Positions 3,734 through 23,088 of a stretch of DNA of 64,000 bases are shown piece after piece (positions within the stretch are counted from its first letter, which is position 1; every line of letters starts with the position of its first letter). Made by a program: the position numbers and the translations under genes. This DNA comes from Bacteroidota bacterium (GTDB taxonomy: Bacteria > Bacteroidota > Bacteroidia > AKYH767-A > OLB10): positions 167,031-231,030 of the forward strand of contig JADJOA010000005.1 in assembly GCA_016714005.1 (NCBI GenBank), in the 5' to 3' direction. The notes beneath the pieces were generated by a model that saw only the letters and a program-made list of their open reading frames with translations, had not been told where the DNA came from and searched no databases.

Positions 3734-4349
3734 TTAGTAAAGCAACTCACCGGCACCCTGCCTTGTTAAAGAGGGTTCAGCAGTTGTGCAATCAATTACC
3801 GTACTGGGAATATTACCACCGTAGCCACTGTCAATAATTATGTCAATTGTATTTTCAAAGTGCTCAAAAATTTCGGCAGGATCGGTCAAGTAATCTGCAA
3901 TAGGGTCATCGGCATTATGCAAAGATGTTACCATTAGCGGATTGCCCAGTGTTTCAATAATATTTAGGGCAACAGCATTGTTGGGTATGCGTATGCCAAT
4001 GGTTTTTCTTATTGCGGAAAATAGCCGGCACATTGTTGCTAGCCTCTAAAATAAAAGTAAAAGCACCGGGTAAATTTTTATTAAGCAGTTTGTAAATACT
4101 ACGGTCAAACGGGCTTGTGTATTCCGATATGTTTTTTAAATCGTTACACAAAAAAGAGAAATTGGCTTTTTCGGGCTTTACATTTTTAAGCCTGCAAATT
4201 TTTTCAAATGCCTTTGCCGATTTAATGCTGCATGCAATGGCATAAACGGTATCGGTAGGTATAATAATTACACCATTGTTGCTTAAAACAGAAACAACGG
4301 TTGCTATTTTTCTTTGATCAATAGAGTGGGAGAGAATGGGGAGGAGCAA
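3734..4349 (-). pseudogene. tsaC: L-threonylcarbamoyladenylate synthase (YrdC/TsaC family), frameshifted as read
   Basis: ORFs 3954-4349 (IIIPTDTVYAIAC..., YrdC fold) and 3734-4033 (RKTIGIRIPNNAVALNIIETLGNPLMVTSLH...) join as ...NNVPAIFRNKKTIGIRIPNN if one base is removed from the T-run at 4003-4007. Confidence 0.8.
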
Positions 4350-4367
4350 GGAAAAGAGATTAAAGTT

Positions 4368-5204
4368 TCAAAATTTGCCTCGCTTAATTGCGGTATCTGT
4401 CCTTGGATAATCAGTTGTAGTTACTTCATATAGATAAGTTCCTTCAGATAAGTTTTTAATATCAATAGAAGTAGATTCGTTAAGGTTTTGAATGAATACT
4501 AATTGAGATAACAAATTATAGACTTTGAGTTGGTAGTTTAAATTCTTGTTTGTAAGCTGAATGTTTAAAGTTTCTGTAGCAGGATTGGGAAACATCTGTA
4601 GGGAGTTTAAAAAATTGGTTTCTTGTAAACCAACATTTGTCTGACACATACTTACTGCATCTAAAAAGTTGCCAATCTGAGGATTATTTCCGGTTACATA
4701 TATTGAATTAAATTTTATAGTAAAGTTACTGCCGGAAGTTGATGGTATAACATAGTTCAAAGAGTAGTAACCCCATGCAGTATCTCCATCACCAAACGTA
4801 CCAAGTATAATTTCATTGCCTGATGAATCTGCAATAGAAACACTCATAGAGTCAACTCCGGTTCTTCCTCTGTGGGCAAAACTTATATTCAAAGCCATGC
4901 CGGGTGCAGCATAAAAACTTTGATAAATAGTTGAATAAAAATAAGCGTTCAATTCAAGAAACTGAGTGCCTGAATAAGCAGGAACACCATTATAGCCATT
5001 CAACCAAACTTCAAATTGATTATCGTTAGCAGTTGTTTTCCAGCACGGCATTTGAGTACTATCGGGAAAAGCAGGCGCTGATGGAAACTGAATGCTGTCA
5101 AAATCGGCATTACAAATGAAATTACAATTTTGAGAATGGATTTTTTGCGACAAGAAAAAAAATAAAAAGAAAATTAAAGAAGCTTTAGTTTTCATTTCAG
5201 TCAT
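4368..5204 (-). CDS. secreted protein with T9SS C-terminal sorting domain
   Basis: Signal peptide (KASLIFFLFFFLSQKIHSQ), a jelly-roll-like passenger, and a C-terminal CTD (MFPNPATETLNIQLTNKNLNYQLKVYNLLSQLVF...LSEGTYLYEV). Confidence 0.7.
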   Translation of the reverse strand: MTEMKTKASLIFFLFFFLSQKIHSQNCNFICNADFDSIQFPSAPAFPDSTQMPCWKTTANDNQFEVWLNGYNGVPAYSGTQFLELNAYFYSTIYQSFYAAPGMALNISFAHRGRTGVDSMSVSIADSSGNEIILGTFGDGDTAWGYYSLNYVIPSTSGSNFTIKFNSIYVTGNNPQIGNFLDAVSMCQTNVGLQETNFLNSLQMFPNPATETLNIQLTNKNLNYQLKVYNLLSQLVFIQNLNESTSIDIKNLSEGTYLYEVTTTDYPRTDTAIKRGKF

Positions 5205-16913: not shown

Positions 16914-17057
16914 TTTTTTGTTTGCAGATTGTATGTTCCATTTATTATCTTTCGTATCTATATCAAAGCTATTCTTGATTAATTTTTAAAGCGTCATCCG
17001 TTGCTACTTTCCGACTTCCTTATTCAAACAATTTTTTGTGATCCTGATTTTGAATTA

Positions 17058-17957
17058 CTATTTGAGTTTCATTACTTGCTCTAACAATGGTGGAAGTCCA
17101 CTTGGATTAATTTGGTCGTTGTTCCAAAAACTCATTACACAACTTACAAAATTATTCCTCACTGGTGCTGCAATAAAATAAACTGTTAATGTTTTACCTC
17201 CACTCATACCAACTAAAACGGAATTAACTCCTGTAATATCAAAGATAATTTTTTTTGCGTTTGTTTCTGCTCCTTCAAAAATAACTGCAACGGTTGTGTC
17301 TGAAACTATCTTGCCTTTATTGCCAGCTTTGATGGACATAAATTGATTATTTACACTTGATGTAGCATCTTCAAGGGTTTTGTGAACACTCCAATTCAAT
17401 TGTCCCCAGTAAGGACATTGAACATTATTAATTCCCATCCATCTGCAACCGCTCCCCAATGGAATTTTTCTACCTGCAAAATTTATATCATCAATGTTTA
17501 ACGATGAATAAACCTCTTTTGGAATAGCATTATCTTTTATTAGTCGTGCAAACTTCCTTTCCAATTCTTTCTCAGTTTTGTTTATTGTTATAAATGAAAT
17601 GCCTACTACTTTGTCCTCAGCATTTTTAAAAAAGTAGTAATTCATGTTCATGGTAAGTTGCTCGGTAGCAACTTTTGATTTGGAAACATAATAGTTTGGA
17701 AACTCCATTGTGCTGTCAGAGGATGTAATTTCTTTTTCTCTTACTGATAGATTTTTAAACTTCTTGGAAATGTTCTTCGGGTTTAATTCCGTTTCTACTT
17801 TTTGAACTGTAATTTCAATTCCATCAACATTAAAAAAGTCAATGCCACTGTTTGAAATTCCATTCAGCCTGGAAAATAAACTAGTGCTATCTTGTCCAAA
17901 AACAAAGCAAGTAGTCAATAATAGAATTAAGGTAAGTAGTTTGGTCTTCTCTATCAT
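17058..17957 (-). CDS. hypothetical secreted protein
   Basis: 299-aa intact ORF with a signal peptide (LLTLILLLTTCFVFGQ). No family recognised. Its start overlaps the upstream ORF's stop by ATGA. Confidence 0.45.
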   Translation of the reverse strand: MIEKTKLLTLILLLTTCFVFGQDSTSLFSRLNGISNSGIDFFNVDGIEITVQKVETELNPKNISKKFKNLSVREKEITSSDSTMEFPNYYVSKSKVATEQLTMNMNYYFFKNAEDKVVGISFITINKTEKELERKFARLIKDNAIPKEVYSSLNIDDINFAGRKIPLGSGCRWMGINNVQCPYWGQLNWSVHKTLEDATSSVNNQFMSIKAGNKGKIVSDTTVAVIFEGAETNAKKIIFDITGVNSVLVGMSGGKTLTVYFIAAPVRNNFVSCVMSFWNNDQINPSGLPPLLEQVMKLK

Positions 17958-18343
17958 TTTGTCATTGTGAAAGTGTAAATTGGTCGTCCTTTTTCGTCAG
18001 ATGTTTTAATCCAGTTCTCTTTGTTCTTTGGGTCATTAAATGAAAGTCTATCGGCTTGAAAGATTGTAAACTTTGTAAACCATGAGGTAGGAGAAGCATC
18101 CTTTCTAAAATTTATTCTTCTTGCTAAGACACTATCATGAGGATAAACAACAAAAGGCAAAGTCATTTCAAATGGTCCCATTTGGCTTCGCTTCATTACA
18201 CTTGCCTTAAAATTTAGAGTTTTGTCTGTTGTATTTTTCACATAGAAAGTTGTTAAGGGATAATTATTGATACAACTTGTACAAGTCAACATAAAAACAA
18301 TTGGCATCAAAACATACATTTGGCGGGACACGGTTATTATCAA
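17954..18343 (-). CDS. hypothetical lipoprotein
   Basis: 129-aa intact ORF with a signal/lipobox-like N-terminus (MPIVFMLTCTSC). It overlaps the downstream ORF by ATGA at 17954-17957. Confidence 0.45.
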   Translation of the reverse strand: MIITVSRQMYVLMPIVFMLTCTSCINNYPLTTFYVKNTTDKTLNFKASVMKRSQMGPFEMTLPFVVYPHDSVLARRINFRKDASPTSWFTKFTIFQADRLSFNDPKNKENWIKTSDEKGRPIYTFTMTK

Positions 18344-18440
18344 GTTTAATTAGTACGAATTTAACTTATTAAAAGTCCTGATACTTGAAGTTTTAGCAAG
18401 AAACTACAGGTATGATTAATCAGTTATTTACTCTAATACT

Positions 18441-19657: not shown

Positions 19658-20022
19658 ATGCGAAAAATCATTATCATTTTAATTACAGTAATTATTATTG
19701 GACTTGTTTTGTTTTTTGTGATTGCAGGCTATACCTATAGTGAAGGCTCGCGCACAGGCTATCTCACCAAATTTAGTAAACGCGGCTATGTTTTAAAAAC
19801 TTATGAGGGTGAGTTAAACCTTGGTGGAATGAATGCTCAAAACAACAGTGTTATGAATAACCTTTGGGATTTTTCGGTACTTTCAAAAGACGCAGCCGCT
19901 ATTGATAGTTTACAGCATTACGAAGGAAGTGTGGTTAAGTTATATTACAAGCAGGTGTTAAAAAACATGCCCGGCAAGGAGATACCGATTACTTTGTTTT
20001 TAAGGTAGAGAAGGTGAGGTGA
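19658..20022 (+). pseudogene. small N-terminally membrane-anchored conserved hypothetical protein, frameshifted near the 3' end as read
   Basis: 116-aa ORF with a TM anchor (IIIILITVIIIGLVLFFVIAG). A one-base shift near the C/G run at about 19970 gives a C-terminus ...RQGDTDYFVFKVEKVR* with its stop at 20020-20022. Confidence 0.45.
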
Positions 20023-20026
20023 GAAT

Positions 20027-21304
20027 TTATTTGAAAGCATCTAGAATTAGTTGGTATACTTTTTCTATTATATTCATTTTAGTTATTGTAAGCGTCATAA
20101 ATATCGAATAAAGAATTATAAATAGTCTAGAAAAATTATTAATTACCCCTCTGAATTTCTCTAGTTGTGAAACAGGAGAATTAATTTTTCCGGCAGAGTC
20201 AATGACCTCTTGGTAATCTTCGGTAACATCCATTTGGGATTCATTTATATTCATATTTACATAGGAAGCCAGTATTGGATTTAAGTGATTTTTTAGATTT
20301 TTATTTAACATTTCAGTACTTATATTTTCTTCTCCACCAAGCTGTTTTATCAATTCAGGTCTATCATTTATTAGTTTTTCAAGTTCTGCAACTGCTTTTC
20401 TATGTTTAAGGAATATTTCCTTAACTTGTAATAAGTTAGTCTTGTTTATTGATATTTTATTTTTCACCTTATTGTAATCAGAATCATAATTAAGGCATTT
20501 AGCATTTAATTTTGATTTTTCATAGTAGTACCTTAAGGCATTCAACTTTATTGGTAAAATTAATATTAGTACAGAGAAATAAACTAAGCAGTTCGAAAAT
20601 TTTTGGTCATCATTATGAAACAGCCCATGAAAAAATTCTCCAATAGAGGGGGAAAAATATTTTATATTGAACCATACTAATAATCCAAAGAAAATAATTG
20701 TTGCCACTCGGAATTTAAAAATCTTGACAATGAACAAGGCGAGTTTTTCAGATAAGTTTGTAATAGCAAAGTATACAAAAAAAGTCAACATAATGAGTAG
20801 GTTGAAATTCCAAACTTGAGTAGTTAGTAATTCTTGGCTATAAGTAAGACCATTAATAATTAAGAGATACAGGCAATATAAAACCGCCATGAGCGTAATA
20901 GGAGTTAAAGGATTAAGGGACTCAATTAGTATTTTTTGCAATTGATCTTCTTGGTCAAATAGATTAGATTGCTGAGTTGATATTTCCTCTAATTCGTTGA
21001 TGGCGTCCTTATGATATGCTTGAGCTTTTTTAAGTGAATCATATAAAATTACGTCCTCAGTTTCAGGGTTTAATAATGTTATTTCCGAAACAATTGCTTG
21101 ATTAGAATCAATATTGATTTTCAATCTTTCTTTCCTAGATTTAAAATCATATTGATTTTTTATTTGTTTAAAACTAGACGTCAAGCCTTCAAGCAGAAAG
21201 GTTCTTATATCAGATGAAATTAAATAACCAACATAAAACGTTAAAAAAAATTCAAATAACGGATGAATCTTGTAAAGAACAGATTTTGACATTAGATAAA
21301 TCAT
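20027..21304 (-). CDS. hypothetical polytopic membrane protein (about 6 TM, two long coiled-coil-like segments); second gene of the A+T-rich cassette
   Basis: 425-aa intact ORF. Hydrophobic helices lie at about residues 15-32, 130-153, 163-183, 188-213, 236-254 and 396-415, with charged heptad-like stretches at about 50-125 and 255-395. Its start overlaps the upstream stop (ATGA at 21301-21304). No family recognised. Confidence 0.6.
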   Translation of the reverse strand: MIYLMSKSVLYKIHPLFEFFLTFYVGYLISSDIRTFLLEGLTSSFKQIKNQYDFKSRKERLKINIDSNQAIVSEITLLNPETEDVILYDSLKKAQAYHKDAINELEEISTQQSNLFDQEDQLQKILIESLNPLTPITLMAVLYCLYLLIINGLTYSQELLTTQVWNFNLLIMLTFFVYFAITNLSEKLALFIVKIFKFRVATIIFFGLLVWFNIKYFSPSIGEFFHGLFHNDDQKFSNCLVYFSVLILILPIKLNALRYYYEKSKLNAKCLNYDSDYNKVKNKISINKTNLLQVKEIFLKHRKAVAELEKLINDRPELIKQLGGEENISTEMLNKNLKNHLNPILASYVNMNINESQMDVTEDYQEVIDSAGKINSPVSQLEKFRGVINNFSRLFIILYSIFMTLTITKMNIIEKVYQLILDAFK

Positions 21305-21966
21305 AGACAGAAAGGTTTCTCTATTTGAGAAGTTTGAAGGTTATCAAAAATACTAGTTAATTTATTGCGGGTAAATGAATCGTTAAAATTTGCAATTGCT
21401 ACGTAGTTTTCAGTATCAGTTTCAAGTCTGAACATTTTACTATCGCCAACACAAAAATTATACATTTTTTTATTATGCAACTTAAGTAACTCCAAATTAC
21501 TTGTCTTTACAAGTCCAATAGAAACATTATCTGAGAAAGTTGGATTTTTTTTGTACTGCCTAATTAACTCAATCGCTTTTGAGTTTTCAGAATTAGAGTT
21601 GCTTTCAAGTTTAATTTCGATTTTAATTTTTCTATTTATTGCTGACTCCAACTCAGTAATATACTCATCCTTTGAAACATCTCCGCAAAGATTCTTCGCT
21701 AATATTTTTATATGGGAATTACTTTGTTTAAAAATATTAGATAAAATAATTCTTGCATGCACGTTATTGGAATTGGGCACAAAAAAATTAGTGCCAGTTG
21801 AGGCTAATCTTTCTATTTCTGATCTATATTTTGTCGGATCAGAATCAAAAACTGAGGAAAAGTCAAAATCCACCATTTTACTTTTTGCCTGAAATTCGAT
21901 ATGGTCTAAAGAATTATAGTGTCTATTAATTTTTAAAAATTTTCTTAAATATTCAATTATTTTCAT
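21301..21966 (-). CDS. hypothetical soluble protein; first gene of the A+T-rich cassette
   Basis: 221-aa intact ORF with no signal peptide or TM segment. The only motif noted is a weak HxR(4x)N string (VHARIILSN). No family recognised. Confidence 0.55.
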   Translation of the reverse strand: MKIIEYLRKFLKINRHYNSLDHIEFQAKSKMVDFDFSSVFDSDPTKYRSEIERLASTGTNFFVPNSNNVHARIILSNIFKQSNSHIKILAKNLCGDVSKDEYITELESAINRKIKIEIKLESNSNSENSKAIELIRQYKKNPTFSDNVSIGLVKTSNLELLKLHNKKMYNFCVGDSKMFRLETDTENYVAIANFNDSFTRNKLTSIFDNLQTSQIEKPFCL

Positions 21967-22248
21967 ATTACTGTAGGGTCAAAATGATTTTAAAAAAAAT
22001 AATAAACGTGTTCCTTTTAATAACGGGGGCATAAATATAAAACATTCTAACAATGGCAAGTTAATAAAATTATTGCCTTAAGCCAAAATAAATTAAGAAA
22101 GTAATGAAAAATCTGTAAAGAGAAATGAGAGGAAGACCGCTTAATGATATTTAAATATTTTAATATAATATTTACAAGTCCAAAATTAAACCCTTTCTAT
22201 CATCCTTTGATTATAAAAATTTTAGTTATTAACAGAATTATAAGCGTG

Positions 22249-23088
22249 TTAAGTCATTAACTCTACAGTAGTTTTTTTTGAATACACATCCCAATTTGAA
22301 AAAGGAATAAAACCTTCTGGTTCTCTTTTAAAAATACCATACAACGCAGAACCACTTCCGCTCATTGCAGCATAAACAGCTCCAGATGCGTAAAGAAAAC
22401 TCTTTATTTCTTTTAGCAAAGGGTATTTTGTAAAAAGTGCTTTCTCAAAATCATTTACAATATAATTCTTCCAGTTTGCAATGTCGCTAACTTTTAGATG
22501 GATTAAATTAAATTGAGGTGGCTTAGGTACAACAAGACTATATGCCTCTTTGGTAGAAATAAAAATATCAGGCTTAACAAGCAATAAATAATATCCTTTT
22601 AAATCAAGGGCAGTGTCATTTAGAATTTCGCCTCTGCCGGTGGCTATTTGAGGAATTGATTTTATAAAGAACGGACAATCGCTGCCAAGCATAGCTGCAT
22701 AATTTAAAAGCGCCTCTGTACTTAAATTGAGTTTAAATTTTTCGTTCAGGATTTTTAAAACCTGCGATGCATCTGACGAACCGCCACCCAAACCTGCTCC
22801 AACCGGTATTTGTTTGTGCAGGTGCATTAACACGGGAGGGAGGTTAAAATCATTATCCAACAGCTGATATGCCTTCACGCAAAGGTTGTTTTGGTTATTT
22901 GCATCGGTTTTTATACCGGTTGAAGTAAATGAGCATTTCTCGTCAATGTCCCGGTTTTTTTCAACAACTTCAATTATATCGTGCAACGGAACAGGATAAA
23001 AAAGAGAATGTAACTCATGATAACCATCAGTTCTTTTAGCAGTTATATGCAAGCCAATATTTATTTTGCAAGGGGCAAATGCAATCAT
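22249..23088 (-). CDS. ispE: 4-(cytidine 5'-diphospho)-2-C-methyl-D-erythritol kinase
   Basis: 279 aa with an N-terminal APCKINIGLHI and the GHMP kinase motif PVGAGLGGGSSDAS. Confidence 0.9.
   Translation of the reverse strand: MIAFAPCKINIGLHITAKRTDGYHELHSLFYPVPLHDIIEVVEKNRDIDEKCSFTSTGIKTDANNQNNLCVKAYQLLDNDFNLPPVLMHLHKQIPVGAGLGGGSSDASQVLKILNEKFKLNLSTEALLNYAAMLGSDCPFFIKSIPQIATGRGEILNDTALDLKGYYLLLVKPDIFISTKEAYSLVVPKPPQFNLIHLKVSDIANWKNYIVNDFEKALFTKYPLLKEIKSFLYASGAVYAAMSGSGSALYGIFKREPEGFIPFSNWDVYSKKTTVELMT

Follow-up and report, generated by a model that had tools for sequence, protein, structure and literature searches.

Introduction

The nucleases Nuc (pKM101), NucT (Helicobacter pylori), and Zucchini/MitoPLD share the alpha/beta fold of the phospholipase D (PLD) superfamily in a domain of about 150-180 residues that carries the canonical HxK(x)4D…GSxN (HKD) motif. 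Nuc is encoded on a mobile element, and Zucchini/MitoPLD is membrane-associated. The same fold with a degenerate HKD motif serves binding and not catalysis in the C-terminal domain of TrmBL2, which is found in archaeal chromatin, and in the DUF1669 domain of FAM83, which is found in eukaryotic kinase scaffolds. In phage defense, DrmC of DISARM and MkoC of Mokosh keep the HKD motif and lie on accessory or mobile DNA, and the RexA/RexB pair of lambda and the KwaA/KwaB pair of Kiwa combine a soluble with a polytopic membrane protein on a prophage or mobile element. Here we analyze a two-gene islet in a 64-kb stretch of DNA from a Bacteroidota bacterium (contig JADJOA010000005.1; the whole stretch of 64,000 nucleotides is called the window below). 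Gene A (21301-21966, minus strand) is an open reading frame (ORF) of 221 codons for a cytoplasmic protein, and gene B (20027-21304, minus strand) encodes a polytopic membrane protein of 425 residues with charged helical segments.

With Nuc, NucT, and Zucchini/MitoPLD, the A protein shares its predicted fold (Foldseek E 4e-8 to 1e-4) and domain size and, with Nuc, its carriage on mobile elements. It differs from all three in lacking the HxK(x)4D…GSxN motif, in having an R-x-E strand of its own, in being free of a signal peptide or transmembrane segment, and in being followed by an obligate-looking membrane partner gene. A would resemble TrmBL2 and FAM83 in using a PLD fold with a degenerate motif for binding, but it has no sequence relationship to either, keeps a conserved polar constellation of its own, and occurs in contexts unlike theirs. 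Some relatives of A show weak profile likeness to DrmC and MkoC, although the A family does not keep the HKD motif as those proteins do, and neither the window nor any of about 14 related loci contains a DrmA/B/D/E, methyltransferase, or MkoA/B helicase gene. The resemblance to RexA/RexB and Kiwa is a functional analogy only, with no sequence or profile likeness, and B is larger than the membrane proteins of those systems and has long coiled-coil-like arms. Neither RexA nor KwaB is known to be a PLD-fold protein. On the analyses reported here, we consider the A-B pair a good candidate for a new phage-defense or exclusion system.

A predicted PLD fold without the HKD motif

The structure of A was modeled with AlphaFold2 from a seven-sequence alignment, giving a predicted local distance difference test (pLDDT) score of 72.9 and a predicted template modeling (pTM) score of 0.75; a single-sequence model (pLDDT 38) was unusable. 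Residues 40-217 (21316-21849, minus strand), which comprise the PLD-fold core, are mostly confident in the model, and the N-terminal 39 residues are variable and of low confidence. Searching the PDB with this model by Foldseek gave 86 matches at E ≤ 1e-3, and all of the 50 best listed of these 86 are PLD-superfamily or PLD-like entries. The best match is NucT (6ehi; E 4e-8, TM-score 0.65 on the target). Further matches include Nuc (1byr), Zucchini, PLD3/4, bacterial PLDs, poxvirus F13, and PssA, and the non-catalytic PLD-like domains of TrmBL2 and FAM83 are also among the top matches. Viral structures in BFVD gave PLD/F13-like matches, in agreement with the PDB result. As modeled, A has a PLD-superfamily fold.

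The preliminary description of this locus had found no transmembrane segment or signal peptide in A, with which we agree, and had noted the weak string VHARIILSN as reminiscent of the PLD motif, though not matching it. Its hunch of a PLD relationship is borne out by the Foldseek result, but it rested on the wrong motif. In the secondary structure of the model, VHARIILSN lies within strand 1 and helix 1 (residues 60-82; 21721-21789, minus strand), at the start of the helix. Across an alignment of 93 A-family members, H70 is conserved in 88 and A71 in 90, as is N65 in 91, but R72 occurs in only 5, which is not the behavior of an HKD-like motif.

In place of the HKD motif, the family carries a signature of its own, [H/N]170-F-x-h-[G/A]-D175-x4-R180-x-E182, which in the window reads N170-F-C-V-G-D175-S-K-M-F-R180-L-E182-T-D184 (21415-21459, minus strand). 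Column counts over the same alignment place D175 in 92 of 93 members and both R180 and E182 in 93 of 93. Position 170 is His in 80 relatives and Asn in 9, with Asn in A of the window. Lys never occurs at position 172, which is T, C, or A. The near-invariant positions of the family are Y47, N65, H70, A71, F171, D175, A190, F194, L203, and F207.

Comparison of the A family with PLD nucleases by hhalign used a Nuc query sequence that agreed with the PDB entry at all positions but one in a PDB search; the same search gave the MitoPLD and NucT sequences. This comparison places D175 on D101 of Nuc, with a probability of only 19% (E 1.2e-3). In the resulting alignment, the His or Asn at position 170 falls on the lysine site (D-5), a variable residue falls on the catalytic His (D-7), and GSxN is deleted. 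A pattern count, which does not depend on the hhalign alignment, was taken over whole sequences: H.K....D occurs in only 3 of 153 family members, never at the homologous site, and the family motif occurs in 141 of 153. Neither column counts nor the pattern count found the canonical HxK(x)4D…GSxN motif across the A family. The motif counts and the hhalign alignment together indicate that A has the PLD fold without being an HKD enzyme, the canonical catalytic motif having been lost.

The chain of the NucT entry 6ehi itself reads GIMNQKVAIID, with Asn at the expected position of the HKD His, and may be a mutant construct. We mention it because NucT is the top structural match and A of the window also has Asn in this region.

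It is also possible to read A as a non-canonical nuclease or phosphodiesterase that is tethered by B and degrades incoming phage or conjugative DNA. H70 or H170 would then serve as the nucleophile, with R180 in place of the HKD lysine, and B would recruit and dimerize A at the inner membrane, A being the effector and B the anchor or sensor; the pair would on this view still act in defense or exclusion. The closest structures, NucT, Nuc, and Zucchini, are dimeric single-domain PLD nucleases; membrane-anchored PLD nucleases such as Zucchini/MitoPLD are known; the coiled-coil arm of B could dimerize A; and the invariance of R, E, D, H, and N residues points to chemistry more than to scaffolding. 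We nevertheless find this explanation unlikely. The site of the HKD His (D-7) is variable and GSxN is missing in the A family, about 10% of members, A of the window included, have Asn at the family His, and a fusion of A to an Mrr-type nuclease in one relative, described below, would be redundant if A were itself a nuclease.

A family of at least 754 clusters

No family had been recognized for A in the preliminary description, and a word-indexed search of 5.8 billion proteins, in which A and B return only themselves, gave the same impression of an orphan. This impression was overturned by an exhaustive HMMER search of 1.84 billion cluster representatives, which finds 754 relatives of A at E ≤ 1e-3 and 158 at E ≤ 1e-10. 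The clusters are defined at 50% identity, and the figure of 754 is to be read as at least that number; most members are 170-230 residues long.

Sequence and profile searches of Pfam, NCBIfam, PHROGs, PADLOC, and the PDB with A of the window gave nothing significant, the sole hint being DrmC at E 0.16 (11.5 bits against a cut-off of 133). Relatives of A match DUF7931 (PF25559) in 31 of 93 cases at E ≤ 0.1, with a best E of 3.8e-8, and the relative P0056 scores 26.0 bits, against a gathering cut-off of 27, over profile positions 3-136 of 149. A of the window has no match to DUF7931 at E ≤ 1. Because A of the window is unmatched and relatives fall just under the gathering score, the A family reads as a sister clade of DUF7931 and not as part of it. 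PLDc_2 is matched by 9 of 93 members (best E 5.5e-4), with P0056 scoring 13 bits against a cut-off of 27, and weak matches to the PADLOC DrmC/MkoC profiles (E about 1e-4) and to the NCBIfam DrmC/NucT profiles occur among the relatives. Consistent with what had been described, the library scans match neither A nor B to a housekeeping family. Scans of viral contigs with single A or B proteins and with the B motif found nothing, and the literature searched yielded nothing relevant on DUF7931, PF25559, or PLD-plus-membrane defense pairs.

Conservation of the A-B pair and exchange of the partner

Genomic context was obtained for 14 independent A lineages, from contig look-ups and a scan of viral contigs. 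In 13 of these 14, A is followed by a B-type partner whose start ranges from 29 nucleotides overlapping to 66 nucleotides downstream; 11 of the 13 pairings are recognized at the level of sequence or architecture, and the other two are known from gene calls only. As a two-gene module, A and B are conserved across distant lineages. The preliminary description had taken the two genes for a single cassette, and homologs of both do co-occur as a pair.

At L090/L091, L092, L093, L095, L096, L097, L105, L106, and L107, a gene for 271-421 residues lies on the same strand, 5-66 nucleotides after A. When compared with B by blastp, the partners at L090, L092, L093, L096, and L107 reach E values of 1e-8 to 3e-13, that at L105 reaches 3e-46 (34% identity), and that at L106 reaches only 2e-5; the partners at L095 (E 0.15) and L097 (E 0.07) are not significant in this comparison. 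A hidden Markov model of B built from an alignment designated A4 recovers L107 at 2e-46, L105 at 1e-31, L106 at 8.5e-26, and L097 at 5e-14, and hhalign gives a probability of 98% for the L097 partner. The L095 partner, a row of alignment A4, is only 15-17% identical to the family but has the same layout of an N-terminal hydrophobic segment, a charged arm, and three to four transmembrane-like helices, and on this basis we count it as a weak B member. At L098-L100, a partner of 304 residues overlaps the end of A and has the same architecture as B, with a weak profile match (hhalign E 6e-4, probability only 29%). The partners in the P0004 and P0006 contexts, of 309 and at least 216 residues, are gene calls only.

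Partners are occasionally swapped. The A protein at L101-L104 is nearly the same as the one at L098, but the gene after it encodes an unrelated soluble protein of 236 residues, for which Pfam and PDB searches detect no family. In P0097, a protein of 344 residues on a Logan contig of 1221 nucleotides, the A domain is joined to a C-terminal Mrr-type restriction-endonuclease domain. Restriction endonuclease is the annotation of the plasmid genes that match this domain at 43-50% identity (E down to 1e-41), and the domain contains the D…Q-x-K pattern of Mrr-type enzymes. No other of the 150 best A-family representatives shows a fusion of this kind. The soluble partner and the Mrr fusion lead us to regard A as the constant element, paired variously with a membrane protein, a soluble protein, or a nuclease.

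Predicted architecture of B

Searches of Pfam, PADLOC, PHROGs, and the PDB gave no match for B, and the B family gives only single weak matches to PADLOC profiles (LmuB, 0.002; 2TM effector, 0.005). The layout common to the family consists of an N-terminal hydrophobic helix, a charged arm of about 100 residues, three to four transmembrane helices, and a charged tail. About six hydrophobic helices and two long charged segments had been noted in B of the window, and this count stands, with an N-terminal helix, four transmembrane-like helices, and a C-terminal helix.

The conserved N-terminal hydrophobic helix, delimited from the alignments, spans residues 10-32 (LYKIHPLFEFFLTFYVGYLISSD; 21209-21277, minus strand) and follows the pattern L-H-P-h-F-E-F-a-L-T, in which the closer partners all keep H14, E18, and F19. 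The helix may serve as a docking site or as a membrane helix. A first charged, heptad-like segment, recognized by its composition, follows at residues 40-128 (20921-21187, minus strand). Residues 33-128 contain 12 K+R and 17 D+E, and the segment is probably cytoplasmic. Relatives show weak matches to the coiled-coil profiles XRCC4_CC, spectrin, FlgN, and mitofusin HR.

The membrane block (residues 129-258; 20531-20920, minus strand) contains four transmembrane-like helices, with hydropathy peaks at residues 132-150, 164-182, 188-206, and 239-257 and conserved residues Y143, L148, F167, and P251. It is followed by a clade-specific C-terminal extension (20066-20530, minus strand), which consists of a charged segment (residues 259-392) and a hydrophobic helix (residues 393-413). 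This extension of about 135 charged residues plus a terminal helix is common only to the closest pair, L105, whose partner has 421 residues, and is missing from the partners of 271-311 residues. The positive-inside rule suggests that both charged arms are cytoplasmic.

Mobile elements and defense neighbors

Related loci adjoin genes for MobA/VirD2 relaxase, TraG/TrwB coupling protein, and ArdC-N, for serine or tyrosine recombinases and IS1595 transposases, and for phage-type proteins (KilA-N, terminase, portal, major capsid, Mu Gp36, and DUF5675). The module sits on phages and on conjugative or other mobile elements. All 11 homologous cassettes are lower in G+C than their own flanks, by 2.6-11.4 points, which indicates that A+T-richness belongs to the module itself; the elements that carry it seem to derive from low-G+C hosts, probably of Bacteroidota type.

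Among 128 neighboring ORFs, PADLOC matches comprise two mad8 genes, a HamA-like gene (3.6e-8), a BrxP-like gene (2e-7), PDC-S45, and Csx1. The L092 element, which carries relaxase and coupling-protein genes, has a Schlafen/AlbA_2 gene (3975-4922, minus strand) that adjoins an HTH_XRE gene about 1 kb upstream of the A-B pair, and an AAA_15/AAA_21 ATPase gene adjoins P0004. At L101, and likewise at L102-L104, a SocA/Panacea antitoxin gene (9245-9715 of L101, minus strand; E 1.8e-11) is convergent to the pair formed by A and the gene for 236 residues. It is followed by a small hydrophobic ORF, on a contig that is phage-like, and is probably an independent toxin-antitoxin module in the same accessory region. 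We had considered the 236-residue partner itself as the Panacea antitoxin and rejected this identification, since the Panacea gene is the convergent neighbor. Compared with a type II toxin-antitoxin system with Panacea, the co-directional 236-residue partner in L101 has no Pfam match.

Such contexts could also be explained if A and B were a toxin-antitoxin or addiction module that stabilizes mobile elements, with B as a membrane toxin and A as its cytoplasmic antidote, or the reverse, and with no anti-phage role of its own. A tightly spaced two-gene operon on relaxase, integrase, insertion-sequence, and phage elements would be expected of such a module, as would A+T-rich accessory cargo, and some loci adjoin the Panacea antitoxin gene or show a weak ParE-like match. 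However, A and B are far larger than typical type II components, and the partner of A is without a recognized toxin or antitoxin domain. The chromosome in the window keeps the islet without a mobile element to stabilize, and the A-Mrr fusion fits a defense architecture better. We therefore judge an addiction role improbable, although even as an addiction module the conserved pairing would constitute a well-defined, testable unit.

The same neighborhoods bear on a second possibility, in which the pair is an accessory for a mobile element or for membrane physiology (conjugation, lysis, or lipid chemistry) and has no role in conflict. In four loci the pair directly adjoins relaxase and coupling-protein genes, its neighbors in some phage loci are DUF5675 or M15 peptidase genes, and the PLD superfamily includes lipid synthases, as the structural matches to PssA and PLD illustrate. 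Yet the pair stands without transfer or lysis genes in the window, in the IS1595-flanked loci, and in an integrase locus. Moreover, PLD enzymes that act on lipids carry two HKD domains, whereas A is a single-domain protein without the HKD motif, and a lipid role does not fit with partners that can be swapped for a soluble protein or a restriction nuclease. We give this accessory explanation a slim chance.

Proposed mechanism

As the best-supported reading, we tentatively propose that the islet is a copy of a widespread mobile conflict module in which A is the sensor and B the membrane effector, a proposal in which our confidence falls somewhat short of even. It is the exchange of partner type, together with the fusion to a restriction nuclease, that favors a scheme in which A senses and its partner executes. 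Known defense systems (CBASS, Thoeris, Avs, and retrons) likewise combine one constant module with effector-type partners that can be exchanged. In the proposed mechanism, A would be the constant sensing or regulatory subunit and would bind a phosphate-containing ligand or a nucleic acid via its D…R-x-E site, within a polar constellation made up of N65, H70, [H/N]170, D175, R180, E182, and N195. B would serve as an inner-membrane effector, built of the N-terminal helix, a cytoplasmic coiled-coil-like arm, and the four-helix block, to which the clade of the window would add an extra arm and helix. On receiving a signal from A, B would impair the membrane or keep DNA from entering, much as RexA/RexB or the transmembrane effectors of other systems do. 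The sensor and effector roles, the interaction of A with B, the topology of B, and any anti-phage phenotype are inferred.

Several observations weigh against this proposal. The strong polar conservation in A could mean that A works as an enzyme and not as a sensor. The islet of the window itself is flanked by no mobile-element or defense gene, and no PADLOC v2 model matches either A or B. Known defense genes are sporadic among the 128 neighboring ORFs, a small sample that has no background set. At the sensitivity of tblastn, neither A nor the family consensus has a match among PLSDB plasmids or GenBank phages, and the contexts sampled number about 14 out of 754 clusters.

A more far-reaching form of the proposal is that A and its partners represent an unrecognized, widespread family of anti-phage or anti-conjugation immunity, in which a PLD-fold domain, turned from a nuclease into a sensor of infection that binds phage-derived nucleic acid or nucleotide at its invariant D…R-x-E site, drives interchangeable effectors. 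These would be mostly a coiled-coil membrane protein, which would collapse the membrane or stop DNA from entering, and occasionally a soluble protein or a fused Mrr-type nuclease. We regard this broader claim as possible but rather doubtful.

If the pair does act in defense or exclusion, it would bring to bacterial immunity both a new type of sensor, an HKD-less PLD fold, and a new family of membrane effectors. A function would follow for DUF7931-like proteins, of which there are at least 754 clusters in public data, and a nuclease fold would have been re-used as a regulatory module with swappable effectors. The defense repertoire of Bacteroidota-type hosts is poorly characterized, and the module is one of many such candidate systems.

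Composition and setting of the islet in the window

The islet sits between ispE and lipA. The features by which it had first been singled out were two minus-strand ORFs of 221 and 425 residues with an ATGA overlap, a compositionally foreign block, an A+T-rich spacer of about 280 bp, and a B stop codon 4 nucleotides from the frame-corrected stop of a convergent gene, and all of these are present in the window. At 1-kb resolution, the G+C content of the block is 27.5-28.6%, against about 33-44% elsewhere in the window; at 300-nucleotide resolution, it is 25-32% in the A and B coding sequences and 22-26% in the upstream spacer. A and B are the two lowest-G+C genes among 60 non-overlapping ORFs of at least 120 codons in the window (0.28 against a window mean of 0.378, standard deviation 0.038, z about -2.55), and their G+C at third codon positions is 0.24, against 0.346 for the window ORFs. 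A and B are foreign in composition.

The upstream spacer measures 282 bp (21967-22248, minus strand), between the ispE stop and the start of A. It contains a Bacteroidota-type -7 motif (TAnnTTTG) starting at 22188 and presumably carries the promoter; sigma-70-type promoter matches are no commoner than in shuffled sequence. The spacer has no Rfam match, and its RNA fold is not better than that of shuffled sequence (z +1.6). Across the 64-kb window, no tRNA, tmRNA, or Rfam family was found. A flanking 34-nucleotide direct repeat was considered as an insertion scar and set aside; it is A+T-rich and 74% identical, and is most likely due to chance. At its downstream end, B stops 4 nucleotides from the stop of the convergent gene of 121 codons (19658-20022), which is frameshifted to 116 codons in the window and intact in conspecific contigs. 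This frameshift and an indel in ispE (22249-23088) are consistent with homopolymer errors of a long-read assembly.

Comparison with conspecific strains

Conspecific contigs were fetched via the A protein itself, a procedure that cannot reveal strains without the islet. Eight Logan contigs, at 98.7-99.75% identity to the window, carry the exact A protein, and the neighbors on these contigs are ispE, A, B, the 121-codon gene, and lipA where the contig extends that far. Against five of them (L001-L005), A and B have zero indels and ispE has one, which supports the intactness of A and B despite an error-prone assembly, as had been remarked from the frameshifts in neighboring genes. The spacer is 99.6-100% identical to the conspecific contigs.

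In all other strains, the A stop is a TAA at codon 217, five codons earlier than in the window, so that A has 216 residues and an 11-nucleotide gap separates it from the B ATG; the A start is identical, and the stop alone differs. The ATGA overlap of stop and start (21301-21304, minus strand), from which translational coupling had been suggested, therefore exists in the window but is specific to its strain. At other loci the A-B gap ranges from -29 to +66 nucleotides. The window differs from all five contigs by eight substitutions clustered at 21260-21369, from A codon 200 to B codon 15, one of which, a TAA-to-AAA change, creates the overlap; the remaining 199 codons of A have no substitutions relative to the five contigs. 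Either a micro-recombination tract or an assembly error confined to this spot could account for the cluster.

These differences raise the question of whether the copy in the window is what is left of an old insertion, decaying and no longer functional. It has Asn at the family His, the usual stop of A is read through and eight substitutions are clustered at the A/B junction, and no mobile-element genes remain nearby. On the other hand, both ORFs are full length in an A+T-rich context that makes stop codons easily, both are intact without indels in six strains, and all invariant residues of A are kept save position 170. Since Asn170 recurs in 9 of 93 relatives, it appears to be a tolerated state. 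Decay of the window copy strikes us as scarcely credible.

The lineage is poorly sampled in the collections that we searched. The sole match to IspE in a scan of reference-genome contigs is a locus from Muribaculaceae, at 41% identity, and a metagenome scan with LipA gave 80 loci at no more than 76% identity, none of which has ispE, the 121-codon gene, or the pair nearby.

On the other side of lipA, the window contains a 1.5-kb insertion (16920-18440) relative to the conspecific contig L001. It holds two overlapping minus-strand ORFs, at 17058-17957 (299 residues) and 17954-18343 (129 residues), of about 33% G+C and both with signal-peptide-like N-termini. In L001, lipA is followed directly by the MiaE, TPR, and Ddl genes, which in the window lie further along. 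The insertion being missing from L001, the neighborhood does take up small insertions.

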